Notes under the pieces: generated by a model
What the model was told of the DNA's origin: nothing
The model's database searches: none
What the model saw: the letters and a program-made list of their open reading frames with translations, nothing else
Source: a virus
Taxonomy: Duplodnaviria; Caudoviricetes
Virus record (IMG/VR): IMGVR_UViG_3300032259_000002
Location: 1 to 64,000 of that record
Strand: one strand, 5' to 3'
DNA length: 64,000 bases
Made by a program: the position numbers and the translations under genes
In this document: positions 2,025-61,160 of the stretch, piece by piece
Layout of the letters: each line of letters opens with the position of its first letter
How positions within the stretch are numbered: position 1 is the stretch's first letter

Positions 2025-2322
2025 AAAGGCAGCTCTTTGCCCGGAATGCGACGAAGTTTTTAATTTAGATAACTACAAGCAATGCCCTAAATGCCTGAAT
2101 AAGGAATACCTTGTTATTGATTTTCTATTACAAAAAGAAAGGGGAATTCCTTCTCTATCATCTGAAATTCTTGATTTTACTTTTATGGGAATAGATAAAA
2201 AAGTAAAAACATTTAAAATAAGTAAAAGATATTTAAGGATAAATTATAAAAAAGGTATAGTGGAAGAGACTGATTCTTTTATAGGAAATGATTGCTGGAC
2301 AGCTTGTCCGGAGATTAAATAA
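2014..2322 (+). CDS. Zinc-ribbon protein
   Basis: CPEC...CPKC motifs. Confidence 0.65.
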   Translation: MKIKKAALCPECDEVFNLDNYKQCPKCLNKEYLVIDFLLQKERGIPSLSSEILDFTFMGIDKKVKTFKISKRYLRINYKKGIVEETDSFIGNDCWTACPEIK

Positions 2323-2335
2323 GGAGTGATTACTT

Positions 2336-2635
2336 ATGGAGTATTTAAGAAAGAAATTTAAAAAGTGGTTAGGGATAGACAAAACAGAAAAAGAAATTGA
2401 AAGGCTTAAGAGATTATACTCTGATCTAGTCCACATAGGAGTGGATGCCCACTTTAAAGAACCCCACATGATTTTAATTTACTCTAAATTGAAGGGGGGT
2501 CAGATATCCCATATTTCTGCTAATTTTGATAATATAAAAGAGTTACATGCTTGTATAAGAGAATTGAAAAGCAAGTATCATACTAAAAAAGAAATATGGG
2601 ATGATCCCAGGCATCTCAGGAAGTTTGGTTATTGA
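2336..2635 (+). CDS. Hypothetical protein
   Basis: 99-aa ORF with AAGGAG SD, last gene of the short plus-strand operon. Confidence 0.6.
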   Translation: MEYLRKKFKKWLGIDKTEKEIERLKRLYSDLVHIGVDAHFKEPHMILIYSKLKGGQISHISANFDNIKELHACIRELKSKYHTKKEIWDDPRHLRKFGY

Positions 2636-2640
2636 ATTTT

Positions 2641-2676
2641 AATAAAAGAAGACCGCCCTGCCGTAACAGGGCGGTC
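2641..2676 (-). terminator. Rho-independent terminator at convergent junction
   Basis: GACCGCCCTG/CAGGGCGGTC 10-bp stem followed by TTCTTTT on the minus strand. Confidence 0.8.
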
Positions 2677-2732
2677 AATGGCCAGTAAAGGCCCAGGGAG
2701 GAAAGCGTGGTAGGCTAGGCCACGCGGAGAGA

Positions 2733-3047
2733 TCATTTTAAACTATCAATAACTTCTCTAACCCATTCTAGATCAGTATCTGCCCTTTCAAGCTTATCCA
2801 TATCTATTAATATTTTGACAGTTGTTAAAGTTTCCCCTGCCTTACTAATATCTATTTTATTAGACTCATATTGTTTTTTATCAAACACTCCTGCTCTACG
2901 GAGCCTTCTGTTTAATTCAGGGGCCAGATTGAGATGTACTTCGAACCTCTTAATATCATCTTGCATTTTTTCCGGAGATGGGAGTTGTTTTAATAAACTA
3001 CAAGCTGAGAAAGTAAGAACCATAAACAGTATTAGTAAATACTTCAT
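2733..3047 (-). CDS. Lipoprotein, possible spanin component
   Basis: Lipobox FSAC after a hydrophobic leader; directly downstream of the holin. Confidence 0.55.
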   Translation of the reverse strand: MKYLLILFMVLTFSACSLLKQLPSPEKMQDDIKRFEVHLNLAPELNRRLRRAGVFDKKQYESNKIDISKAGETLTTVKILIDMDKLERADTDLEWVREVIDSLK

Positions 3048-3226
3048 TTAGAACCCTCCTTTTCTTTTCCATCAACATACCCCTGGCCCACAACATAAGT
3101 AGCGGCCATAGCTACTATCTGCATTATAGTATCAGCAGATAATCCCAAAGCAAAGGCATCATTGCACGCTGTGAGTAACCCAATTCCTACAGTAATTAAA
3201 AACTTTCTTGATTTTATTTTTTCCAT
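3044..3226 (-). CDS. Holin
   Basis: 60 aa, KSRKF start, two hydrophobic segments, charged tail; near the amidase. Confidence 0.7.
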   Translation of the reverse strand: MEKIKSRKFLITVGIGLLTACNDAFALGLSADTIMQIVAMAATYVVGQGYVDGKEKEGSK

Positions 3227-3262
3227 TTATTAAATCCTCCTTGTTTTTATTTGTTTTTAAAA

Positions 3263-3604
3263 TCAGCCTTTGTAGTAATTATCATATTCTTTATATTTCT
3301 TTTTCAACTCATCAAGCCATTTTCTGCAATTTTCTTTATCCCAGGGATCAATAGCTTTAGAAAAGTCATCACCAAACCTATCTTTGCAATTGTAGATTTG
3401 TTTCTCCAGAAAAGAAATCCTCTCTTCCAGATCTTTCTTATCAAGCCTAACGGTCAGGGTGTCTATATCCTGCTGCTTTCCAAAATATTTAAAAGCGCCA
3501 TAACAACCAGATCCGGCAGTACCCAAAACTGTCAGAAATACTGATAAGGTAATTATAAACTTCATTATATTACTTGCGTTATCGAATCTATCTTTTATTT
3601 TCAT
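3263..3604 (-). CDS. Single-TM coiled-coil protein (possible i-spanin/antiholin)
   Basis: One TM segment then coiled coil with two Cys; inside the lysis cassette. Confidence 0.5.
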   Translation of the reverse strand: MKIKDRFDNASNIMKFIITLSVFLTVLGTAGSGCYGAFKYFGKQQDIDTLTVRLDKKDLEERISFLEKQIYNCKDRFGDDFSKAIDPWDKENCRKWLDELKKKYKEYDNYYKG

Positions 3605-3613
3605 TTTTATAAA

Positions 3614-4195
3614 TCACCTCCTCACTGATTCTATAATAGTTTTAAGTGTATTTCCCGGGCATGCTTTTTTACCAAAATGATAATGACCATAAAGGTCTTT
3701 ATCAGACCATCCCCAGAGATCTTTACAAGCCTGCCATAATATCATAAAACTGAGTAACTGAGCATGATTGGGCTCTGCTCGTTTTGTCCCTGAATGCCCT
3801 TCTCCATTAAAATTACCTACAAACATAACTGCTAAAAACTCAGCATTCTCATCCCCGGCCCTGTTTCTATCTCCCTGGCTCCAAGTAGCTTTATTAAAAT
3901 CATTACAGATATGTATTATTCCTTTTTCATCAATAGCCATCGAGTATAAAAGAGACTCCATTCCCTGTCCTGGAGCTACATGGCATTTGGGGCTTATATG
4001 GTATCTGGCGGTATCTACAATACTCATCCAGCCTAATTCCTGATGAGCAACTAAACCCTTTAATTTTGCAACTTCTCTTAATCTAAATATCCTACCTGAT
4101 GCATTTACTGGAAGAGTCTTTCTTACGTCCAATGGTAAGGGTAAACTCAAAGCCTCTACTACTTCAGTTATTTTTAAAAGTAAAGCATTTTCCAT
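3614..4195 (-). CDS. Endolysin, N-acetylmuramoyl-L-alanine amidase (Amidase_2-like)
   Basis: VAHQ, YHI and YGHYHFGKKACPG zinc-amidase motifs; ATG at 4195 preferred over GTG at 4204. Confidence 0.8.
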   Translation of the reverse strand: MENALLLKITEVVEALSLPLPLDVRKTLPVNASGRIFRLREVAKLKGLVAHQELGWMSIVDTARYHISPKCHVAPGQGMESLLYSMAIDEKGIIHICNDFNKATWSQGDRNRAGDENAEFLAVMFVGNFNGEGHSGTKRAEPNHAQLLSFMILWQACKDLWGWSDKDLYGHYHFGKKACPGNTLKTIIESVRR

Positions 4196-6212: not shown

Positions 6213-7601
6213 TTAATTATTAGGTATTCGTAAAAGTTTAAACCCAGCCCCGCCGCTATCCGCCGCACCGACTGAGACCCTTTCAAACGTCCCGTTATCA
6301 ACATCATATATCAATAAGCGCGTATTTCCGGCTGTTGCATCCCTATCAACCTGCAAAGTCGTTACGCTATTAAATACAATGTCAAGATGCGACGTATAAG
6401 AGCCGAAGAGAACACCGCCGCCAGCGTCTTGAGTATCAAACACCGTCCCGTCGGTCCCGCCATATCTAACAGTTAGCCCCTCATGTGCCGCGTCAGTTGT
6501 TATTTCAGGAGTGCCGGAATTAACGCTATTTTCGTATGCGTCTTGCAGAGTAGCTGCGCCAGTAACACCACCCCCTAACCCTGTCGCGTTTTGCGGCCTA
6601 GCGTCTTGAAACTCTAAAGCCGTAGCATCGTTTTTCTTTACTATTATTTTTGCAATAGGCACAACACGAGGGCGAGCATTTAAAAACGGCCCCAAATCAA
6701 AAGGGGCCTCTCTTGCGCTGCCTAATGCTAAATATTCGTCCTGAGAATACAGCAAGAAGAATCGGGGGTCTCTCCCGTTGCCTTCGGGTGACATAAAGAG
6801 ATTATGCGCCGCGTGCCAATTGTTATTGGTCATGGCCGTTAATCCGGTGGCCGGATCATCATAATTGACATTATCAAATTGCAGCAAGCCGAGGGTGCTC
6901 GTCCAGTTACCTAACGCGGTATGAAAAAGAGTAATCCCGGTTATCGCGGTAAAAGGCCCTATTGTATGTGATTGCATTTCGCTGTCAAAAAATGTCCCCG
7001 TAGATATATCAATATTTCGCGTTCCTGACTCTGAGGTAATTAGCCCATCTTTTACGAGCGGCCCGTTAACGTTCTCAACCCATAGCATGACGCGCTTATC
7101 AAATGCCGATACGTTCGGCCTTATATCTGTAATTCCTAAATCTGATATATCTGAGCCTGGGCCAGTCTGCCCTTTTGCGGCCTGTACCCGGCAAATCGGT
7201 ATAATGCTATCGCGCTCGGAGTCTGTGAAAAATGTAGCTTTCTTAACTAATCCTGAGGAGTAACCAAGGAAAGCGCCACTATCTGAAACCGGAAACTCCG
7301 GGTCAATTGCCGTCACATTATCAAAGCGGTATTCGGTCCCGTTAATATGAATTATGCAGGGCGCAATATCAACTTTGGTTATATCGCCGTTTCGTGTACA
7401 CTGGCACGAGGTCGGCCCGACTTCATGCTCATGTATCCCCGTGACCCCTGTAACGATACCCACATCTGTTGACCAAAGCGTCCGATCAGTAGCGGAAAGA
7501 GAGCGTGACATTTTCATGCCGTCTGGCGTTACTTCCCATCCCAGAGAATCAGCAAAGACAACTGACGGCACTAAAAGCAATAAAAATATTAAATATCTCA
7601 T
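6213..7601 (-). CDS. Fibre-like beta-rich protein with a signal-peptide-like N-terminus
   Basis: Start MRYLIFLL at 7601 (TAATG overlap with the upstream stop); Gly/Thr-rich; ends GAADSGGAGFKLLRIPNN. Confidence 0.55.
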   Translation of the reverse strand: MRYLIFLLLLVPSVVFADSLGWEVTPDGMKMSRSLSATDRTLWSTDVGIVTGVTGIHEHEVGPTSCQCTRNGDITKVDIAPCIIHINGTEYRFDNVTAIDPEFPVSDSGAFLGYSSGLVKKATFFTDSERDSIIPICRVQAAKGQTGPGSDISDLGITDIRPNVSAFDKRVMLWVENVNGPLVKDGLITSESGTRNIDISTGTFFDSEMQSHTIGPFTAITGITLFHTALGNWTSTLGLLQFDNVNYDDPATGLTAMTNNNWHAAHNLFMSPEGNGRDPRFFLLYSQDEYLALGSAREAPFDLGPFLNARPRVVPIAKIIVKKNDATALEFQDARPQNATGLGGGVTGAATLQDAYENSVNSGTPEITTDAAHEGLTVRYGGTDGTVFDTQDAGGGVLFGSYTSHLDIVFNSVTTLQVDRDATAGNTRLLIYDVDNGTFERVSVGAADSGGAGFKLLRIPNN

Positions 7602-9973: not shown

Positions 9974-10765
9974 TTAAGCACCCAGTACCCCTTTCAAGTT
10001 TATCCTTTGAGATGGGATTACAAAATCAGTGGGAAAAGATTCCGTCTTATCTCCCCCGAAATCAACATAACTTATAATAGGTTTATCCGCTAAACTGGCC
10101 TCATTATCATCTAAAATGATCAATCCAGAAGCAGGCCCTATAGTCCCACTGGGTGTCCATGAGATCTGTGGTATTATAATTTCATATAAATTATTTATAA
10201 TATCTTTTTGTAAAGTAAGAGCTCCTATTACTTTAGTATTGGCAGTATAGCCGCCACCTGTTTCCAATTCTTCTCCGGTGGTATTAGCAATAGGGAGGGC
10301 TCCAAGTGGAGTCAAACTCCCATCATCTGTCCAAGTCGTCACTTCTCCAACTTCTATTAATAATTCTTCTGCTATAAAGGATCTTCCATAAATTTTATAA
10401 CCTGTTGCTCCATCAACTGCACCCCAAGTAATCTGAACTCCTTTAGTAGCCACTATGGTAACGTTATCTTCTACAGAAGCAAGAGTCTCTCCTTTTGAAT
10501 TTACAGCAGATACTCTATAATAATAGGTACCCGCTGCTAAAGTACCGGTTGTTTCCACTAATCCACTAATTACAGGGGTCTCTAAACTGATTATACCTGA
10601 ATTAGCAAAAGTATGGTTTACCTCATCAAAAACAAAACCAGATTGCATTAAAAGAGCTTTGAAAGAATGGGGAGTTCCCTGACCAAGCCCCTCATCTCCA
10701 AAATTGACTTTGGCTCTTGCTATCTGTACAAAAGCCTCAATTGGGAATTTAACAAGTACTGCCAT
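9974..10765 (-). CDS. Tail structural protein with an inserted Fn3-like domain
   Basis: YYYRVSAVNSKGET...QITWGAVDGATGYKIYGR. Confidence 0.6.
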   Translation of the reverse strand: MAVLVKFPIEAFVQIARAKVNFGDEGLGQGTPHSFKALLMQSGFVFDEVNHTFANSGIISLETPVISGLVETTGTLAAGTYYYRVSAVNSKGETLASVEDNVTIVATKGVQITWGAVDGATGYKIYGRSFIAEELLIEVGEVTTWTDDGSLTPLGALPIANTTGEELETGGGYTANTKVIGALTLQKDIINNLYEIIIPQISWTPSGTIGPASGLIILDDNEASLADKPIISYVDFGGDKTESFPTDFVIPSQRINLKGVLGA

Positions 10766-56746: not shown

Positions 56747-57832
56747 CTACTCATCTTTAAAACCCATCACTAAATGAAAAAAACTATCTGATTTTCCGGC
56801 AAGCATTGGTATACTATCTTCTCCGGTGGAATAACAGAATGCTATCTCGTCCACTGCTTGAAGGATGTCTAAAATATGATTGGCATCCATTCTACAAGAA
56901 ATCTCTTCTTCTGAAATATCTTCTTCAAATACAATAGACTCTTTAATGGCCCCATAACCACTTTTTCCGGATACTAAAAGAGTCTCCTCCTCAGAATCAA
57001 GATGGACAATCTGATCTGTTTCTTTAGAAGTAAGTAAAGTGGTTCTTTCTATGGCAGTTAAGAGATTTTCAGGTATCTCCTGAAATTCATTTTCCTCCTC
57101 ATCCCAATGAGCCTCTATGACTGCTTCATAATCAAGGTAGTCTACCTCAGTTAGAAGCTTAGTGTAAACATACACTCCCTCAAAACAAGCAAATATAAAA
57201 TCCTCACTAAAATAGAGTTCAGCAGAAGTATCATTAAGCTCCTTGCTTATATCAAGTATAAGTCTACAAAATACTTCTGGGAGAAGCATTTTAATAGATT
57301 TTTTCCCTAATGTTTTTTCAAGGGAGTATCTGGAGATTCTTTGATTATCGGTTGAATATAGATGGGCTCCCTTTTTATCAGATACAAGGGTTATTCCGAA
57401 TTGATTTCTTTGTAAAGAATTTTTACTTACTGAGATGAGGGTTTTCTTTATACCCATTAAAAAATCTTCTGATAAAGTAAAAGATGGGAGATCGTCGATG
57501 TCAGGTATTTCAAAAATAAAATCAGCTTCAGGGAGGCAGGCAAGTTTAGCATTTGATTTGCCTATTTTAATATTGACCTCATTCCCTTTCTGGTTTACTG
57601 CCATTTTATCTGAGGAATAACTGCTAAGAAGTTTTATGAGAAGTTCCCCAGGAAGACCACAATTCTCAATAGTAACAGCATCCTCATAATCAATTATGAT
57701 TCCCTGTATTCCGTTAAAAGCTATGATCTCTTCATCCGTAAAACAGAAATGCGATAGTATTGGTACTATGTCCTGCGTAGATAGACAAGGTCTGGCCATA
57801 TTCAACTTTTCCAATAAAGACGTTCTTTCCAT
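56747..57832 (-). CDS. dnaN: DNA sliding clamp (Pol III beta-like)
   Basis: 361 aa, three-domain size, PILSHF, STDNQRI, PEADF patterns; clamp loader nearby. Confidence 0.82.
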   Translation of the reverse strand: MERTSLLEKLNMARPCLSTQDIVPILSHFCFTDEEIIAFNGIQGIIIDYEDAVTIENCGLPGELLIKLLSSYSSDKMAVNQKGNEVNIKIGKSNAKLACLPEADFIFEIPDIDDLPSFTLSEDFLMGIKKTLISVSKNSLQRNQFGITLVSDKKGAHLYSTDNQRISRYSLEKTLGKKSIKMLLPEVFCRLILDISKELNDTSAELYFSEDFIFACFEGVYVYTKLLTEVDYLDYEAVIEAHWDEEENEFQEIPENLLTAIERTTLLTSKETDQIVHLDSEEETLLVSGKSGYGAIKESIVFEEDISEEEISCRMDANHILDILQAVDEIAFCYSTGEDSIPMLAGKSDSFFHLVMGFKDE

Positions 57833-58031
57833 TATTTTCTCCTCACTCTTTTAGATTTATTAACAACTTTATAAATACCATTAATTATATATATATAGGC
57901 AAAAAATCTGATTGTAAAGTTTTTATAAGATGGTAGGATAAAAGCCTTTTCTTTGATTCCATTCTTGTGAGAGACTCACCGGGGCCATTTCCTTGAGTAT
58001 CCTCAAGCCAGGTAGCTAAGTATATTTTCAT
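57832..58031 (-). pseudogene. MKIY mini-gene M6, truncated at a (TA)6 tract
   Basis: MKIYLATWLEDTQGNGPGESLTRMESKKRLLSYHLIKTLQSDFLPIYI* (stop 57885-57887); losing one TA adds INGIYKVVNKSKRVRRK* ending in a TAATG overlap with dnaN. Confidence 0.75.
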
Positions 58032-58167
58032 TTATTAATTTCCTAAAAACTTTTTTATCTGATTCTTTGTAATACTGATAGCTAAATAGTATTCTGACCA
58101 AATAACTCTCTCTCTCGATGTAAGTATCTTCTTTATTTTTAAAATTTACTGATAAATATATTTTCAT
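58003..58167 (-). CDS. MKIY mini-gene M5 (intact, 54 aa)
   Basis: MKIYLSVNFKNKEDTYIERESYLVRILFSYQYYKESDKKVFRKLINENILSYLA*; (CT)5 at 58106-58115 in frame. Confidence 0.75.
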   Translation of the reverse strand: MKIYLSVNFKNKEDTYIERESYLVRILFSYQYYKESDKKVFRKLINENILSYLA

Positions 58168-58337
58168 TTAATAAACCTGACAATTCCTTTTTCCACATAA
58201 AATTTAAAATCAAATCCTTTGGTAATGGAACCTACTATATATATATGAGATAAAAGTCTATGACTATTTAATACTTTTGTTAAAGTATGTCCCTGATTAA
58301 TATCTGGTTCTGGCTGAGTAGCTAGATATATTTTCAT
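58164..58337 (-). CDS. MKIY mini-gene M4 (intact, 57 aa)
   Basis: MKIYLATQPEPDINQGHTLTKVLNSHRLLSHIYIVGSITKGFDFKFYVEKGIVRFIK*; (TA)5 at 58236-58245 in frame; ATGA overlaps at both ends. Confidence 0.8.
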   Translation of the reverse strand: MKIYLATQPEPDINQGHTLTKVLNSHRLLSHIYIVGSITKGFDFKFYVEKGIVRFIK

Positions 58338-58487
58338 TCTTCAAAAACACCATTAAGGTATTGCTTAAATAGTTTTCTAGATAGATTCCTAACATAGTAA
58401 AAAGAAATCAAATTAGTCAGGGATTTCATAATTAAAACTCTCTCTCTGATTAGAAACTACTACATCCACTGCTAAGTATATCTTCAA
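58334..58487 (-). pseudogene. MKIY mini-gene M3, out of frame at a (CT)5 tract
   Basis: TTG start; one more AG unit gives MKIYLAVDVVVSNQRERVLIMKSLTNLISFYYVRNLSRKLFKQYLNGVFEE* (51 aa, ATGA overlap). Confidence 0.75.
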
Positions 58488-58643
58488 TTCTTTTCCTCTA
58501 TATGTTTTAAAATAACTTTAAAATCTTGATCAGCCATACCGCCTATTCTATGAAAATGAAAAGACAGTAACCTCTTTGACTTCTTTCTCAGAAGAAACCT
58601 CTCTCTCTTCAATCAAACAAGTACCGGCAAAATATATTTTCAT
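58484..58643 (-). pseudogene. MKIY mini-gene M2, out of frame at a (CT)5 tract
   Basis: One more AG unit gives MKIYFAGTCLIEERERFLLRKKSKRLLSFHFHRIGGMADQDFKVILKHIEEKN* (53 aa, TTGA overlap). Confidence 0.78.
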
Positions 58644-58812
58644 TACTTATCTCTTTTATAATCTATTATAACTAGTAAACTTTTTTTCATTTTATTAGAA
58701 GTTAGGAAATGATCTGCAAAACTGAATAATCTAGAATATTTAAATTTTAATAACAACTCTCTCTTCCATCAACATTCATGATAGAATAACCACCTGCTAA
58801 ATATATTTTCAA
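58643..58812 (-). pseudogene. MKIY mini-gene M1, out of frame at a (CT)4 tract
   Basis: TTG start overlapping the dpdA stop; one fewer AG gives MKIYLAGGYSIMNVDGRELLLKFKYSRLFSFADHFLTSNKMKKSLLVIIDYKRDK* (55 aa, TAATG overlap). Confidence 0.78.
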
Positions 58813-59609
58813 AAGAAATTACCTCTCAGTAAAGATCTATTGAAAGGCCTATCTGGAAGGTACTTTTCAAGATCAAGAAAATAAATAATATTAAGCTCAT
58901 CTCTTTTTTTATAATCAGCAGAAAGCTCTTCGTAGTTATAGCCCTTTTCCTCGAAATAATGGAGAATATGGTCTTGGACTATTTTTGAATAATTAGAAAA
59001 ATGCTGGCCTTCTATACCAGCTTTGGGAGATTTATCAGATACCACTACCTTATGTGGTATTTTTGAAAAATCGTAACCATCTCTATTTCTGATAGGAACT
59101 ATGACCGAGCCGAAGCGGCCGGTCTTTACCCAAGAAGTACTATCAACAGAAAACCAAGGATAGCGGAGAAGTATCTTCAGTGAGGTAACTCCAAAGCCAT
59201 GTATCTTACAAACAGGCCAGCCTTCTTGATCAGTCAGATACTTAGCAAATAAACCGTCCAGCCAGGGCATCAACTTTTTGCCCGGAGTCCCCACCATACC
59301 ACCAAGGGCTATGTAATCGTATCCCTCTTCTAAATATTTTTTAAGGTATTTTATATCGGTATTAAAATGAAAACAAGGTAGTGGATTCAATCCTTTTTTC
59401 TCAAGGTATTTTTGATTCTTATAAGTGGCTTCCGGATCTCCAATCACATCAAGATTGGCATACACTGTTAAATACTTTTTGTACTCTTTAATAAAATCAG
59501 CATATTCATCTATACTTATTTCAATACCTTTTGACCAAGCAGAGAAAGCACCACTATCAAGAAATAAATCTACTTTATTTTCTGACTTATCACTTCTTCT
59601 TTTTCTCAT
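58809..59609 (-). CDS. dpdA: DpdA-like 7-deazaguanine DNA transglycosylase core (N-terminally short)
   Basis: LFLDSGAFS, ANLDVI, PCFH, IALGG, IHGFG, SVDSTSW TGT-like motifs; adjacent to queC and folE. Confidence 0.85.
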   Translation of the reverse strand: MRKRRSDKSENKVDLFLDSGAFSAWSKGIEISIDEYADFIKEYKKYLTVYANLDVIGDPEATYKNQKYLEKKGLNPLPCFHFNTDIKYLKKYLEEGYDYIALGGMVGTPGKKLMPWLDGLFAKYLTDQEGWPVCKIHGFGVTSLKILLRYPWFSVDSTSWVKTGRFGSVIVPIRNRDGYDFSKIPHKVVVSDKSPKAGIEGQHFSNYSKIVQDHILHYFEEKGYNYEELSADYKKRDELNIIYFLDLEKYLPDRPFNRSLLRGNFF

Positions 59610-59643: not shown

Positions 59644-60336
59644 CTAATCCCTTTCAAAAAGAGGGTCTTCGATGCCAGCATGATCAAAACCTTTTTGTCT
59701 GAGCAGACAAGCATGGCAGTGACCACATGGAGGATATTGCCCATTATAGCAGGTATGAGAATAGGCCAAGGCTTCCATACAGCCTTCAAGCTTACAGGCT
59801 AAATCCACTGAATCCCTTTTGGTCATAAACATTAAAGGGGTATGTATATCAAAGACAAAATCAGAACCATAAATACCTTCCCCAAGAGCTTTAGTCATAG
59901 CCACTATAAAAGTATGCCGGCAATCATGGTAGCCTGCAAAGTCCTCTTGACAAACTCCGGTTACCATATCAGTTATACCAAGACAGGCCGCTCGGTTAGC
60001 AGCTATAGTCAGAAAAAGAATATTCCTGGCTGGAACAAAAGTTGGCTCTACCCCTTCTGGTAATTCTTCATGAGATGGGTATTGACCTACTTCATAATCA
60101 CTATTTACAAGAGGGCTGGTTCCTTTAAGAACTGGGCCCAACTCAATGACCTCATGACTTGCTACCCCTGCCATTTTTGCTATCTTTTTAGCAGACTCTA
60201 ACTCAATAGAGTGTTTCTGACCATAATCAAAAGTAACGGCATGGACTTCATCAAATTTACTTTTAGCCCAGAATAGGCAAGTTGTGGAATCCTGGCCACC
60301 GCTCAAAACAACAAGGCATTTGCTCTTCTCTTTCAT
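59644..60336 (-). CDS. queC: 7-cyano-7-deazaguanine synthase
   Basis: SGGQDS PP-loop, VPARN, CY...CGHCHAC. Confidence 0.95.
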   Translation of the reverse strand: MKEKSKCLVVLSGGQDSTTCLFWAKSKFDEVHAVTFDYGQKHSIELESAKKIAKMAGVASHEVIELGPVLKGTSPLVNSDYEVGQYPSHEELPEGVEPTFVPARNILFLTIAANRAACLGITDMVTGVCQEDFAGYHDCRHTFIVAMTKALGEGIYGSDFVFDIHTPLMFMTKRDSVDLACKLEGCMEALAYSHTCYNGQYPPCGHCHACLLRQKGFDHAGIEDPLFERD

Positions 60337-60353: not shown

Positions 60354-61160
60354 TTATAATTTTATTAAAGACATCAACTCTGCTCTAGCAGCAATGCCTT
60401 TTTGGCTATCATCTTTAAACACCCCAGTAAGAGCGGAGGTGGTCATTATTGAGCCCTGTTTCTCCACTCCCCGCGAAGTCATGCAAAAATGTTGGGCCTC
60501 AATAATACAAGCAGCACCTATACACTTAAGATTCTCCATTAAGGCATTTACCGCTTGTTTTCCTATTCTTTCCTGTATCTGAAGCCTTCTACTAAAAATT
60601 TCAAAAAGTCTTGCAAGTTTAGATACTCCAATTACTTTCTCATTTGGAATATAAGCTAAGTGAAAGCGACCAAAAAACGGCAACAGGTGATGCTCACAAG
60701 TAGAATAAAACTCACAATTTTTAAGGAGTACCAACTCGTCATACCCTTCCGAATCAAAAACCTTGAATACTTCTTTGGGATCTAATTTGTAACCAGAAAA
60801 AAGATGGTCGTAAGACTTAAGTACTCTTTCCGGAGTCTCAAGAAGTCCCTCCCTTTCCGGATCATCTCCAAGATAGGAAATGGTAGCTCTCACATTCCTT
60901 AATAGGGCTTCTTTGTATAAGGAGGCATCTCCATCTACTGATAAGAATCTCCATTTCTTCTTATCCAAGGATCTTCTTATTAGATTTTTCTCTCTTTTCT
61001 CATAATAACCAAAAGCAACATTAGTTAACCTATCTACTCCTATAAGACAAAAGGTTTCTCCTACACCACCAGAAGGTACTCTTTGGGCTACTTTTATAGG
61101 AAAATTCTCTGATGCGTGTCCCCGTCTTTCTAACCAAATATCCTCTAAACTCTTTTCCAT
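60354..61160 (-). CDS. folE: GTP cyclohydrolase I with ~85-aa N-terminal extension
   Basis: REGLLETPERV, CEHHLLPF, RRLQIQER, HFCMTSRG. Confidence 0.93.
   Translation of the reverse strand: MEKSLEDIWLERRGHASENFPIKVAQRVPSGGVGETFCLIGVDRLTNVAFGYYEKREKNLIRRSLDKKKWRFLSVDGDASLYKEALLRNVRATISYLGDDPEREGLLETPERVLKSYDHLFSGYKLDPKEVFKVFDSEGYDELVLLKNCEFYSTCEHHLLPFFGRFHLAYIPNEKVIGVSKLARLFEIFSRRLQIQERIGKQAVNALMENLKCIGAACIIEAQHFCMTSRGVEKQGSIMTTSALTGVFKDDSQKGIAARAELMSLIKL

Follow-up and report, generated by a model that had tools for sequence, protein, structure and literature searches.

The window analysed here comprises positions 1 to 64,000 of the IMG/VR record IMGVR_UViG_3300032259_000002, a viral sequence of 77 kb that stems from sediment metagenomes. 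The GC content is 36.6%. Between its dpdA gene, which encodes the core of a DNA 7-deazaguanine transglycosylase, and a sliding-clamp gene, six mini-genes (M1 to M6, Table 1) each contain a dinucleotide tract, and this array of six tracts is probably a random on/off switch array. The best explanation, to which a probability of roughly 0.7 is assigned, is that the mini-genes are detached modules of DpdA and that each of them is toggled by repeat slippage.

The proposed mechanism is as follows. The DpdA core lacks its module, which is instead encoded by six separate, translationally coupled copies in the interval from dpdA to the clamp gene. All copies contain a short perfect GA or TA repeat within the coding region, and slipped-strand mispairing during replication of the phage DNA would add or remove whole 2-nt units. 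Such changes would move the respective copy between an in-frame (ON) state and out-of-frame (OFF) states. In the consensus sequence of the window M1, M2, and M3 are OFF, M4 and M5 are ON, and M6 is truncated at its tail. That repeat slippage drives the ON and OFF states is considered to be likely.

Dinucleotide tracts and reading frames in the window

A preliminary description of the same DNA had reported that every mini-gene carries a dinucleotide tract, that M4 and M5 are intact, and that the other four copies end at premature stops. All six tract positions were confirmed, the four premature stops matched the ends of the listed open reading frames (ORFs), and M4 and M5 were found to be uninterrupted in the ORF list. 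The description had also stated that the array contains no further frame-breaking lesion, and a reading of the frames indeed found none.

Reading in three frames localized the frame changes of M1, M2, and M3 to the segment that follows the MKIYLAG start and precedes the RLLSF/Y motif. The addition of one unit restores the family frame of M2 and of M3, and the removal of one unit (or the addition of two) rejoins that of M1, which runs on over positions 58646-58756. It had been claimed that a change by one unit restores the motif frame in all broken copies. This is true for M1, M2, and M3, but M6 never loses the family core and is only deprived of its C-terminal tail. The tail persists in a shifted frame at positions 57835-57885, is homologous to P0016 (LPTYIRTGINK), and is rejoined when one unit is removed. 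The restored frames of M1, M2, M3, and M6 end in TAATG (at the M2 start), TTGA (the TGA overlapping the TTG of M3), ATGA (at the M4 start), and TAATG (at the start of the clamp gene), respectively, i.e., their stops overlap the next start, as had been described. M5 departs from this description, because its reading continues for 9 codons beyond the M6 start. The starts of all six mini-genes match the 17-nt motif ATGAAAATATAYYTAGC with at most two mismatches (6 hits versus 0.27 expected).

The tracts are strongly concentrated in the array. It contains six of the 15 dinucleotide tracts of at least 4 units that are present in the 64 kb, and all five tracts of at least 5 units in the window fall inside the 880-bp array. 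The background rate leads to an expectation of 0.125 tracts in 880 nt, and the Poisson probability of six or more is 4.9e-9. When the array was shuffled 2000 times with preservation of the dinucleotides, tracts of at least 4 units occurred with a mean of 0.35 and a maximum of 4, and six were never obtained; the mean for tracts of at least 5 units was 0.04. The complete window, with its GC content of 36.6%, does not contain a single run of at least 8 A or 8 T, showing that slippery sequence is otherwise scarce. Slippery runs seem to be avoided in the remainder of the window.

The neighboring genes are compiled together with the mini-genes in Table 1. On the minus strand the order is folE, queC, dpdA, the six mini-genes, the sliding-clamp gene, a cytosine methyltransferase gene, and a family A polymerase gene. 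A module of folE, dpdA, clamp, and polymerase genes is also present in Queuovirinae, e.g., in Pseudomonas phage NP1 and in Seuratvirus, and the location of the clamp gene downstream of a mini-gene or of the array belongs to a conserved synteny (L001, L002, L008, L028, NP1, and Seuratvirus; L numbers denote related loci). A blastn comparison of the array region with cultured phages yielded no match, and no additional mini-gene copies were found in the genome of the window phage outside the array. The array was not registered as a DNA tandem repeat by Tandem Repeats Finder, the copies being too diverged.

Table 1. Positions of the mini-genes and of neighboring genes in the window
Feature	Position	Strand	Start	Tract	State and remarks
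folE	60354-61160	minus
queC	59644-60336	minus
dpdA core	58809-59609	minus			DNA 7-deazaguanine transglycosylase, 266 aa; phrog_887, E=6.6e-63
M1	58643-58812	minus	TTG 58812, overlaps dpdA stop	(GA)4, 58757-58764	OFF, stop 58747
M2	58484-58643	minus	ATG 58643	(GA)5, 58599-58608	OFF, stop 58548
M3	58334-58487	minus	TTG 58487	(GA)5, 58438-58447	OFF, stop 58413
M4	58164-58337	minus		(TA)5, 58236-58245	intact, 57 aa
M5	58003-58167	minus		(GA)5, 58106-58115	intact, 54 aa; tract encodes E-R-E-S
M6	57832-58031	minus		(TA)6, 57886-57897	48 aa, family core intact; tract removes conserved tail, stop 57885
Sliding-clamp gene	56747-57832	minus			PF00712 and phrog_947

The mini-protein family and its link to DpdA

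All six mini-genes encode versions of one small alpha/beta module, which is characterized by the pattern MKIYLAG...RLLSYYY, and they are paralogues that have diverged from each other. A profile of the intact copies retrieved 345 clusters at 50% identity (E <=1e-3), most of which are free-standing proteins of 48-80 aa, a typical member having about 55 aa. The two main subtypes can be described by the patterns MKIYLATWLE..QG..LT...RLLSYFF...YV.TG and MK[IL]Y[LF]AGNFP.MK...E+.FRD...RRLLSYYY, respectively. Scans of the mini-proteins of the window against Pfam and PHROG did not yield any family match. The clusters found with the profile make up a sizeable family of phage mini-proteins that lacks an annotation. 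For M4 alone, AlphaFold2 predicted a compact strand-helix-strand-helix-helix unit with a mean predicted local distance difference test (pLDDT) score of 84.7; a Foldseek search with this model found no match in the PDB, and the protein atlas yielded no usable match.

The number and the arrangement of the copies differ between phages. A single mini-gene is located between dpdA and the clamp gene in the relatives L002 and L008, and several copies surround dpdA in L001, L011, L014, L016, and L028. In addition, L008 contains tandem dpdA paralogues (positions 2233-3153 and 3153-4001), one of which is core-only and the other fused to an N-terminal module, followed by the free mini-gene.

In many proteins the mini-domain is part of DpdA itself. 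One to three copies are fused to the N-terminus in P0082, P0129, L015, L018, L004, L034, and one mini-gene of L014 (mini-c, see below), and C-terminal fusions were found in P0049, P0069, P0080, P0090, P0105, and P0127. The family profile matched the fused DpdAs P0082, P0129, P0049, P0069, P0080, P0090, P0105, and P0127 with E values from 4e-9 to 4.5e-7, and the fused proteins all belong to phrog_887. The preliminary description had labelled the mini-genes partners of DpdA, a label that is backed by these natural fusions, which tie the module to DpdA.

The fusions also give a hint about the origin of the mini-genes. In P0129 and P0082 the last mini-domain covers positions 6-50 of the phrog_887 profile. 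A profile search with the DpdA of the window resulted in an alignment to positions 50-280 only, and the protein begins 14 residues ahead of the LDSGAFS motif. L015, the DpdA core of which is 60% identical to that of the window, has the module fused. The mini-genes are therefore best read, on the basis of these alignments, as detached and multiplied copies of the N-terminal module of DpdA. The DpdAs of cultured Queuovirinae, which are 43-45% identical to the window DpdA, begin with a segment of about 50 aa that shows the pattern of the family, i.e., a hydrophobic strand followed by ILESYHYV, a likeness that was judged by eye. An hhalign comparison of the family with the NP1 DpdA gave a weak match (E=0.07), in which RLLSYYY..DMRREE was aligned to ILESYHYV..DMRRDG (residues 32-59).

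Length alleles and frame states in related phages

The tract alleles of the window lineage were read from assembled contigs, including Logan contigs. Over the whole array, the window is 100% identical to a contig of 76,979 nt from a second sample and to one of 824 nt from a third sample, and a Logan contig with a depth of 84 agrees with the tracts of the window. One differing allele was found in a 269-nt contig from a different study (run X3), which has 2 nt fewer at position 57886 and is otherwise identical, and thus represents an in-frame (TA)5 allele of M6. In-frame alleles of M1 to M3 of this lineage were not found in a collection of 5.8 billion proteins, which is not evidence of their absence. 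In run X2, two Logan contigs with a depth of about 2.7 abut exactly where the M2 tract ends (58599/58600). This could represent a branch of the assembly graph due to a length variant, or simply low coverage, and the observation was not used.

A sister lineage was considerably more informative. The locus L014 has a GC content of 29% and encodes a DpdA that is about 50% identical to that of the window. Three mini-genes are located upstream and three downstream of dpdA; the last, mini f, runs off the contig end, and all five that are complete on the contig contain a GA tract. Two of them are out of frame by one unit, their post-tract ORFs being intact and ending in ATGA overlaps. When the post-tract pieces were used as queries, the predicted in-frame proteins were found in the protein database (P0166 and P0167).

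Three further contigs of this lineage, L023, L024, and L025, are 97.6-98.5% identical to L014, and indels occur only at the tracts, always by plus or minus one unit. Tract a has 5 units in L014, L023, and L024 and 6 units in L025. Tract b has 7 units in L014 and 8 units in L023 and L024, and tract c has 7 units in L014 and L023 and 6 units in L024; the L025 contig ends before both. Each sister contig therefore has a different ON/OFF pattern. Such differences between related genomes follow as a prediction from the preliminary description, and the three GA tracts that vary by one unit agree with it. The minis a to c of this lineage contain four synonymous, no missense, and one nonsense change, too few for an estimate of the ratio of nonsynonymous to synonymous substitution rates.

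The mini-c type lies directly upstream of dpdA (L014:378-1403; also in L024, L039, L040, L041, and L044). It has the pattern M.I.LAGVPGGG..GDCKRERELN..RLWSYYH, and an (AG)n tract with a suitable number of units joins it in frame to DpdA. A tract that is longer or shorter by one unit leaves it detached. The tract thus decides whether DpdA has an N-terminal module.

Length differences of this kind could in principle be errors of assembly or sequencing at dinucleotide repeats, a caveat that had been raised earlier. All alleles stem from short-read assemblies, and the (TA)5 allele has a depth of 2. However, the tracts of the window phage are identical in three independent assemblies from different samples, showing that they are not assembly errors, and the high-depth Logan contig has the same tracts. 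Two assemblies of the sister lineage that also share substitutions have the (GA)8 allele in common, and tracts of 8-16 nt are well inside the accuracy of Illumina sequencing. An artefact is thus extremely improbable as an explanation of the tracts.

The same repeat-frame behavior was found in the lineages L028/L029/L030 and L031/L032, and a pattern scan of IMG/VR added 14 contigs (L033-L046) with GC contents of 30-52%. The frame state was called frame by frame with a hidden Markov model of the family and by visual inspection. Of the 65 mini-genes on these contigs (about 22), roughly 24 were found to be frameshifted. The break is located at a dinucleotide tract in 17 of these 24 cases, at a run of eight G in three, and elsewhere in four. 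The three G8 runs, at the frame junctions of OFF mini-genes in L037 (position 8851, plus strand) and L038 (minus strand, positions 6423 and 7748 in reverse-complement coordinates), are the only G runs of at least 8 in about 280 kb of fetched loci, and they give the impression of being another kind of switch repeat within this gene family. Runs of seven G were also observed within dpdA itself, in frame and at a homologous place (..R-M/L-G-G..), in L036 (position 2938, plus strand) and L046 (minus strand, position 10195).

Paralogue types are conserved between lineages, and their ON/OFF states differ. In at least nine contigs the b-type (MKIYLAGTPG...RLLSFWDI) contains 5-8 GA units; it is ON in five cases (L041, L039, L044, L043, and L023/L024) and OFF in four (L014, L035, L040, and L046). 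For the M1-type, a tract of 6 units results in an in-frame copy in L028 (ortholog mini 3), L043, and L044, and it is OFF at 4 units in the window and at 7 units in L035. In the relatives the tracts have 5-9 units, up to (GA)9.

The frames behind the tracts have remained open. Seven OFF copies from four lineages contain no stop in 257 post-tract codons of the family frame, compared with 27 and 28 stops in the other two frames. In addition, the GA tracts persist from 29 to 52% GC despite codon bias. The probability that E-R-E is encoded by pure GA, calculated from codon usage, is 0.087 for the window and 0.004-0.055 for eight other phages. At other places in long ORFs, E-R-E and R-E-R are not encoded by GA, with the exception of two cases in L041, which are probably mini-c fused to DpdA. 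Taken together, the persistence of the tracts against codon bias, the recurrence of three repeat types at comparable positions, the unit polymorphism, the presence of both states, and the open frames are consistent with repeats that toggle the genes by slippage and are maintained as such.

Open post-tract frames and the large fraction of broken copies would also be expected if the latter were read through by programmed ribosomal frameshifting or transcriptional slippage, and were thus not truly OFF. For such a recoding a shift of +1 would be needed in 14 cases and of -1/+2 in 10, and no single direction fits. Neither a slippery heptamer nor a stimulator is shared by the copies, and in-frame DNA alleles exist. 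AGA is the major arginine codon in the window (59%), which makes frameshifting at hungry codons unlikely. Recoding is thus regarded as highly improbable. A bias of the tracts towards contraction was also considered, since six of the first seven OFF copies needed the addition of one unit, and was dropped because the wider set (14 versus 10) gives no support.

A different view of the GA tract is that it mainly acts in cis, either as a run of DpdA target sites or as a purine-rich ribosome-binding stretch for internal starts, and that the effects on the frame are incidental. GA is the reported DpdA motif in phage iggy, and GA plus GGC have been reported for CAjan, both of which belong to the Queuovirinae (PMC10484667, PMC7544227). 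If GA is the target motif, (GA)n would form consecutive modification sites right beside dpdA. With respect to ribosome binding, the post-tract ORF of M3 has an in-frame ATG at a distance of 8 nt downstream of the tract, but the spacing to internal starts is not kept in M1 or M2. A role of GA also leaves unexplained why the equivalent places in other copies hold TA and G8 tracts, and the whole-unit length variation between near-identical genomes does not fit a cis element. The latter is therefore very unlikely to be the main role of the tracts.

A more serious competitor of slippage-driven toggling, though still rather unlikely, is a non-adaptive birth and death of redundant duplicates. The repeats would then be by-products of the coding of E-R-E and I-Y-I that slippage has expanded, and would be the first sites to break before a dispensable copy is deleted. 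In line with this, the (TA)5 tract of M4 codes for a conserved S-H/Y-I-Y-I stretch, the YIYI of which is kept in the orthologs P0065 and P0087, the GA tracts encode the E/K-E-R motif of the family, and a large number of family members occur as a single copy without any tract. Against it, the same paralogue type keeps perfect tracts over the wide range of GC contents and against codon bias; repeats of all three types (GA, TA, and G8) are found at similar positions of the genes; ON and OFF alleles of one gene exist in near-identical genomes; the OFF copies that were checked have completely open frames behind their tracts; and dead DNA is normally purged from phage genomes.

Several observations nevertheless weigh against toggling by slippage, and some of them would be expected from birth and death. 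Inactivating lesions outside of repeats occur in relatives. The mini-c of L023 has a nonsense change (TGG>TGA versus L014, column 477 of alignment A5). The N-terminal module fused to DpdA is interrupted by GGA>TGA in L028/L029 (around position 1985) and is intact in L030 (around position 1490). In L011 (4116-4300) an 11-bp tandem duplication (TGGTTTAGGGC / TGGTTTAAAAA) shifts the frame of the third mini-gene, and the fourth has an ATG>ACG change plus a shift near a G6 run. Of the mini-genes without a repeat, about 4 of 19 are frameshifted, too. These lesions show that the modules can also be lost by ordinary decay. The preliminary interpretation of the tracts as hypermutable is thus in accord with the frame-setting tracts and the variation between genomes, but needs to be complemented by plain gene loss.

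Further points concern the window and the sampling. The OFF pattern is fixed and identical in the three assemblies of the window phage, and the (TA)5 allele of M6 is known from a contig with only twofold depth. Proven dinucleotide switches usually have 5-6 or more units, and the tracts of the window, with 4, 5, 5, 5, 5, and 6 units, are at the low end. The search pattern for L033-L046 required one (AG)5 tract and thus introduced an ascertainment bias. Lastly, in an AlphaFold2 model of the natural fusion of mini-c and DpdA the core was confident, and the module had a pLDDT below 50, which is uninformative about its packing.

Possible function and comparison with known systems

The preliminary description had proposed that the toggling diversifies the DNA modification against host restriction, with up to 64 states, a purpose that is hypothetical. 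Switching may be frequent and reversible within the phage population and may be kept by selection as a form of bet-hedging, and the set of expressed modules might change the activity of DpdA, its sequence motif, or its resistance to host counter-measures. DpdAs differ in their target motifs (PMC10484667), and a candidate specificity or regulatory element for the choice of the motif is the small N-terminal module, irrespective of whether it is fused to the core or free. The assumption that the switching is selected bet-hedging that alters the behavior of DpdA is tentative, and the odds are somewhat against it. In its most elaborate version, the array would be a heritable combinatorial switchboard. 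Slippage would pick alternative N-terminal modules, which would set the 7-deazaguanine motifs or shield DpdA from host inhibitors. The resulting mixed modification patterns would hedge against restriction and modification-sensing defences, and the mutability itself would have been selected across lineages via GA, TA, and G8 repeats. This version is possible, yet rather doubtful.

A search of the literature on repeat-driven phase variation in phage genomes found no description for phage genes, and neither repeats nor detached N-terminal modules are mentioned in the DpdA papers that were searched. In bacteria, phase variation by repeats is a textbook strategy. If the switching is real, phages would also use contingency loci, and they would do so at the core of their anti-restriction DNA hypermodification. 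Slippage would also account for many of the apparently "frameshifted" small ORFs beside dpdA in viral metagenomes.

The closest parallel with regard to the tracts is found in Helicobacter pylori, in which CT repeats in the 5′ coding region make the outer-membrane protein genes oipA, sabA, and hopZ contingency loci. Like the mini-genes, these genes have a perfect CT/GA repeat a few dozen nucleotides after the start, and a change in the number of units shifts the frame. Several paralogues have their own tracts, and the ON/OFF patterns vary between close relatives. In contrast to these bacterial surface proteins, the mini-genes encode phage modules of about 50 aa for DNA modification, and their tracts are shorter (4-9 units).

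The cultured Queuovirinae with DpdA1, i.e., the phages 9g, CAjan, iggy, NP1, and Seuratvirus (PMC6884629, PMC10484667), share with the window the neighborhood of folE, queC, dpdA, clamp, and DNA polymerase genes. In these phages the module is fused and single, and neither of the two loci inspected contains a dinucleotide tract, whereas in the window it is detached, present six times, and repeat-bearing.

With regard to function, the array can be compared with the phasevarions of bacteria, in which Type III mod and Type I hsdS/hsdM methyltransferases are phase-variable by simple sequence repeats (PMC5909438, PMC7383803). Common to both would be the repeat-driven ON/OFF switching of a component of DNA modification, possibly with mixed modification states in a population. 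In phasevarions, however, it is a host methyltransferase that is switched, via its catalytic or its specificity subunit, with consequences for gene regulation or restriction, whereas the array would switch small accessory modules of a 7-deazaguanine transglycosylase. If the switchboard proves to be true, it would be the phage counterpart of the bacterial phasevarions.

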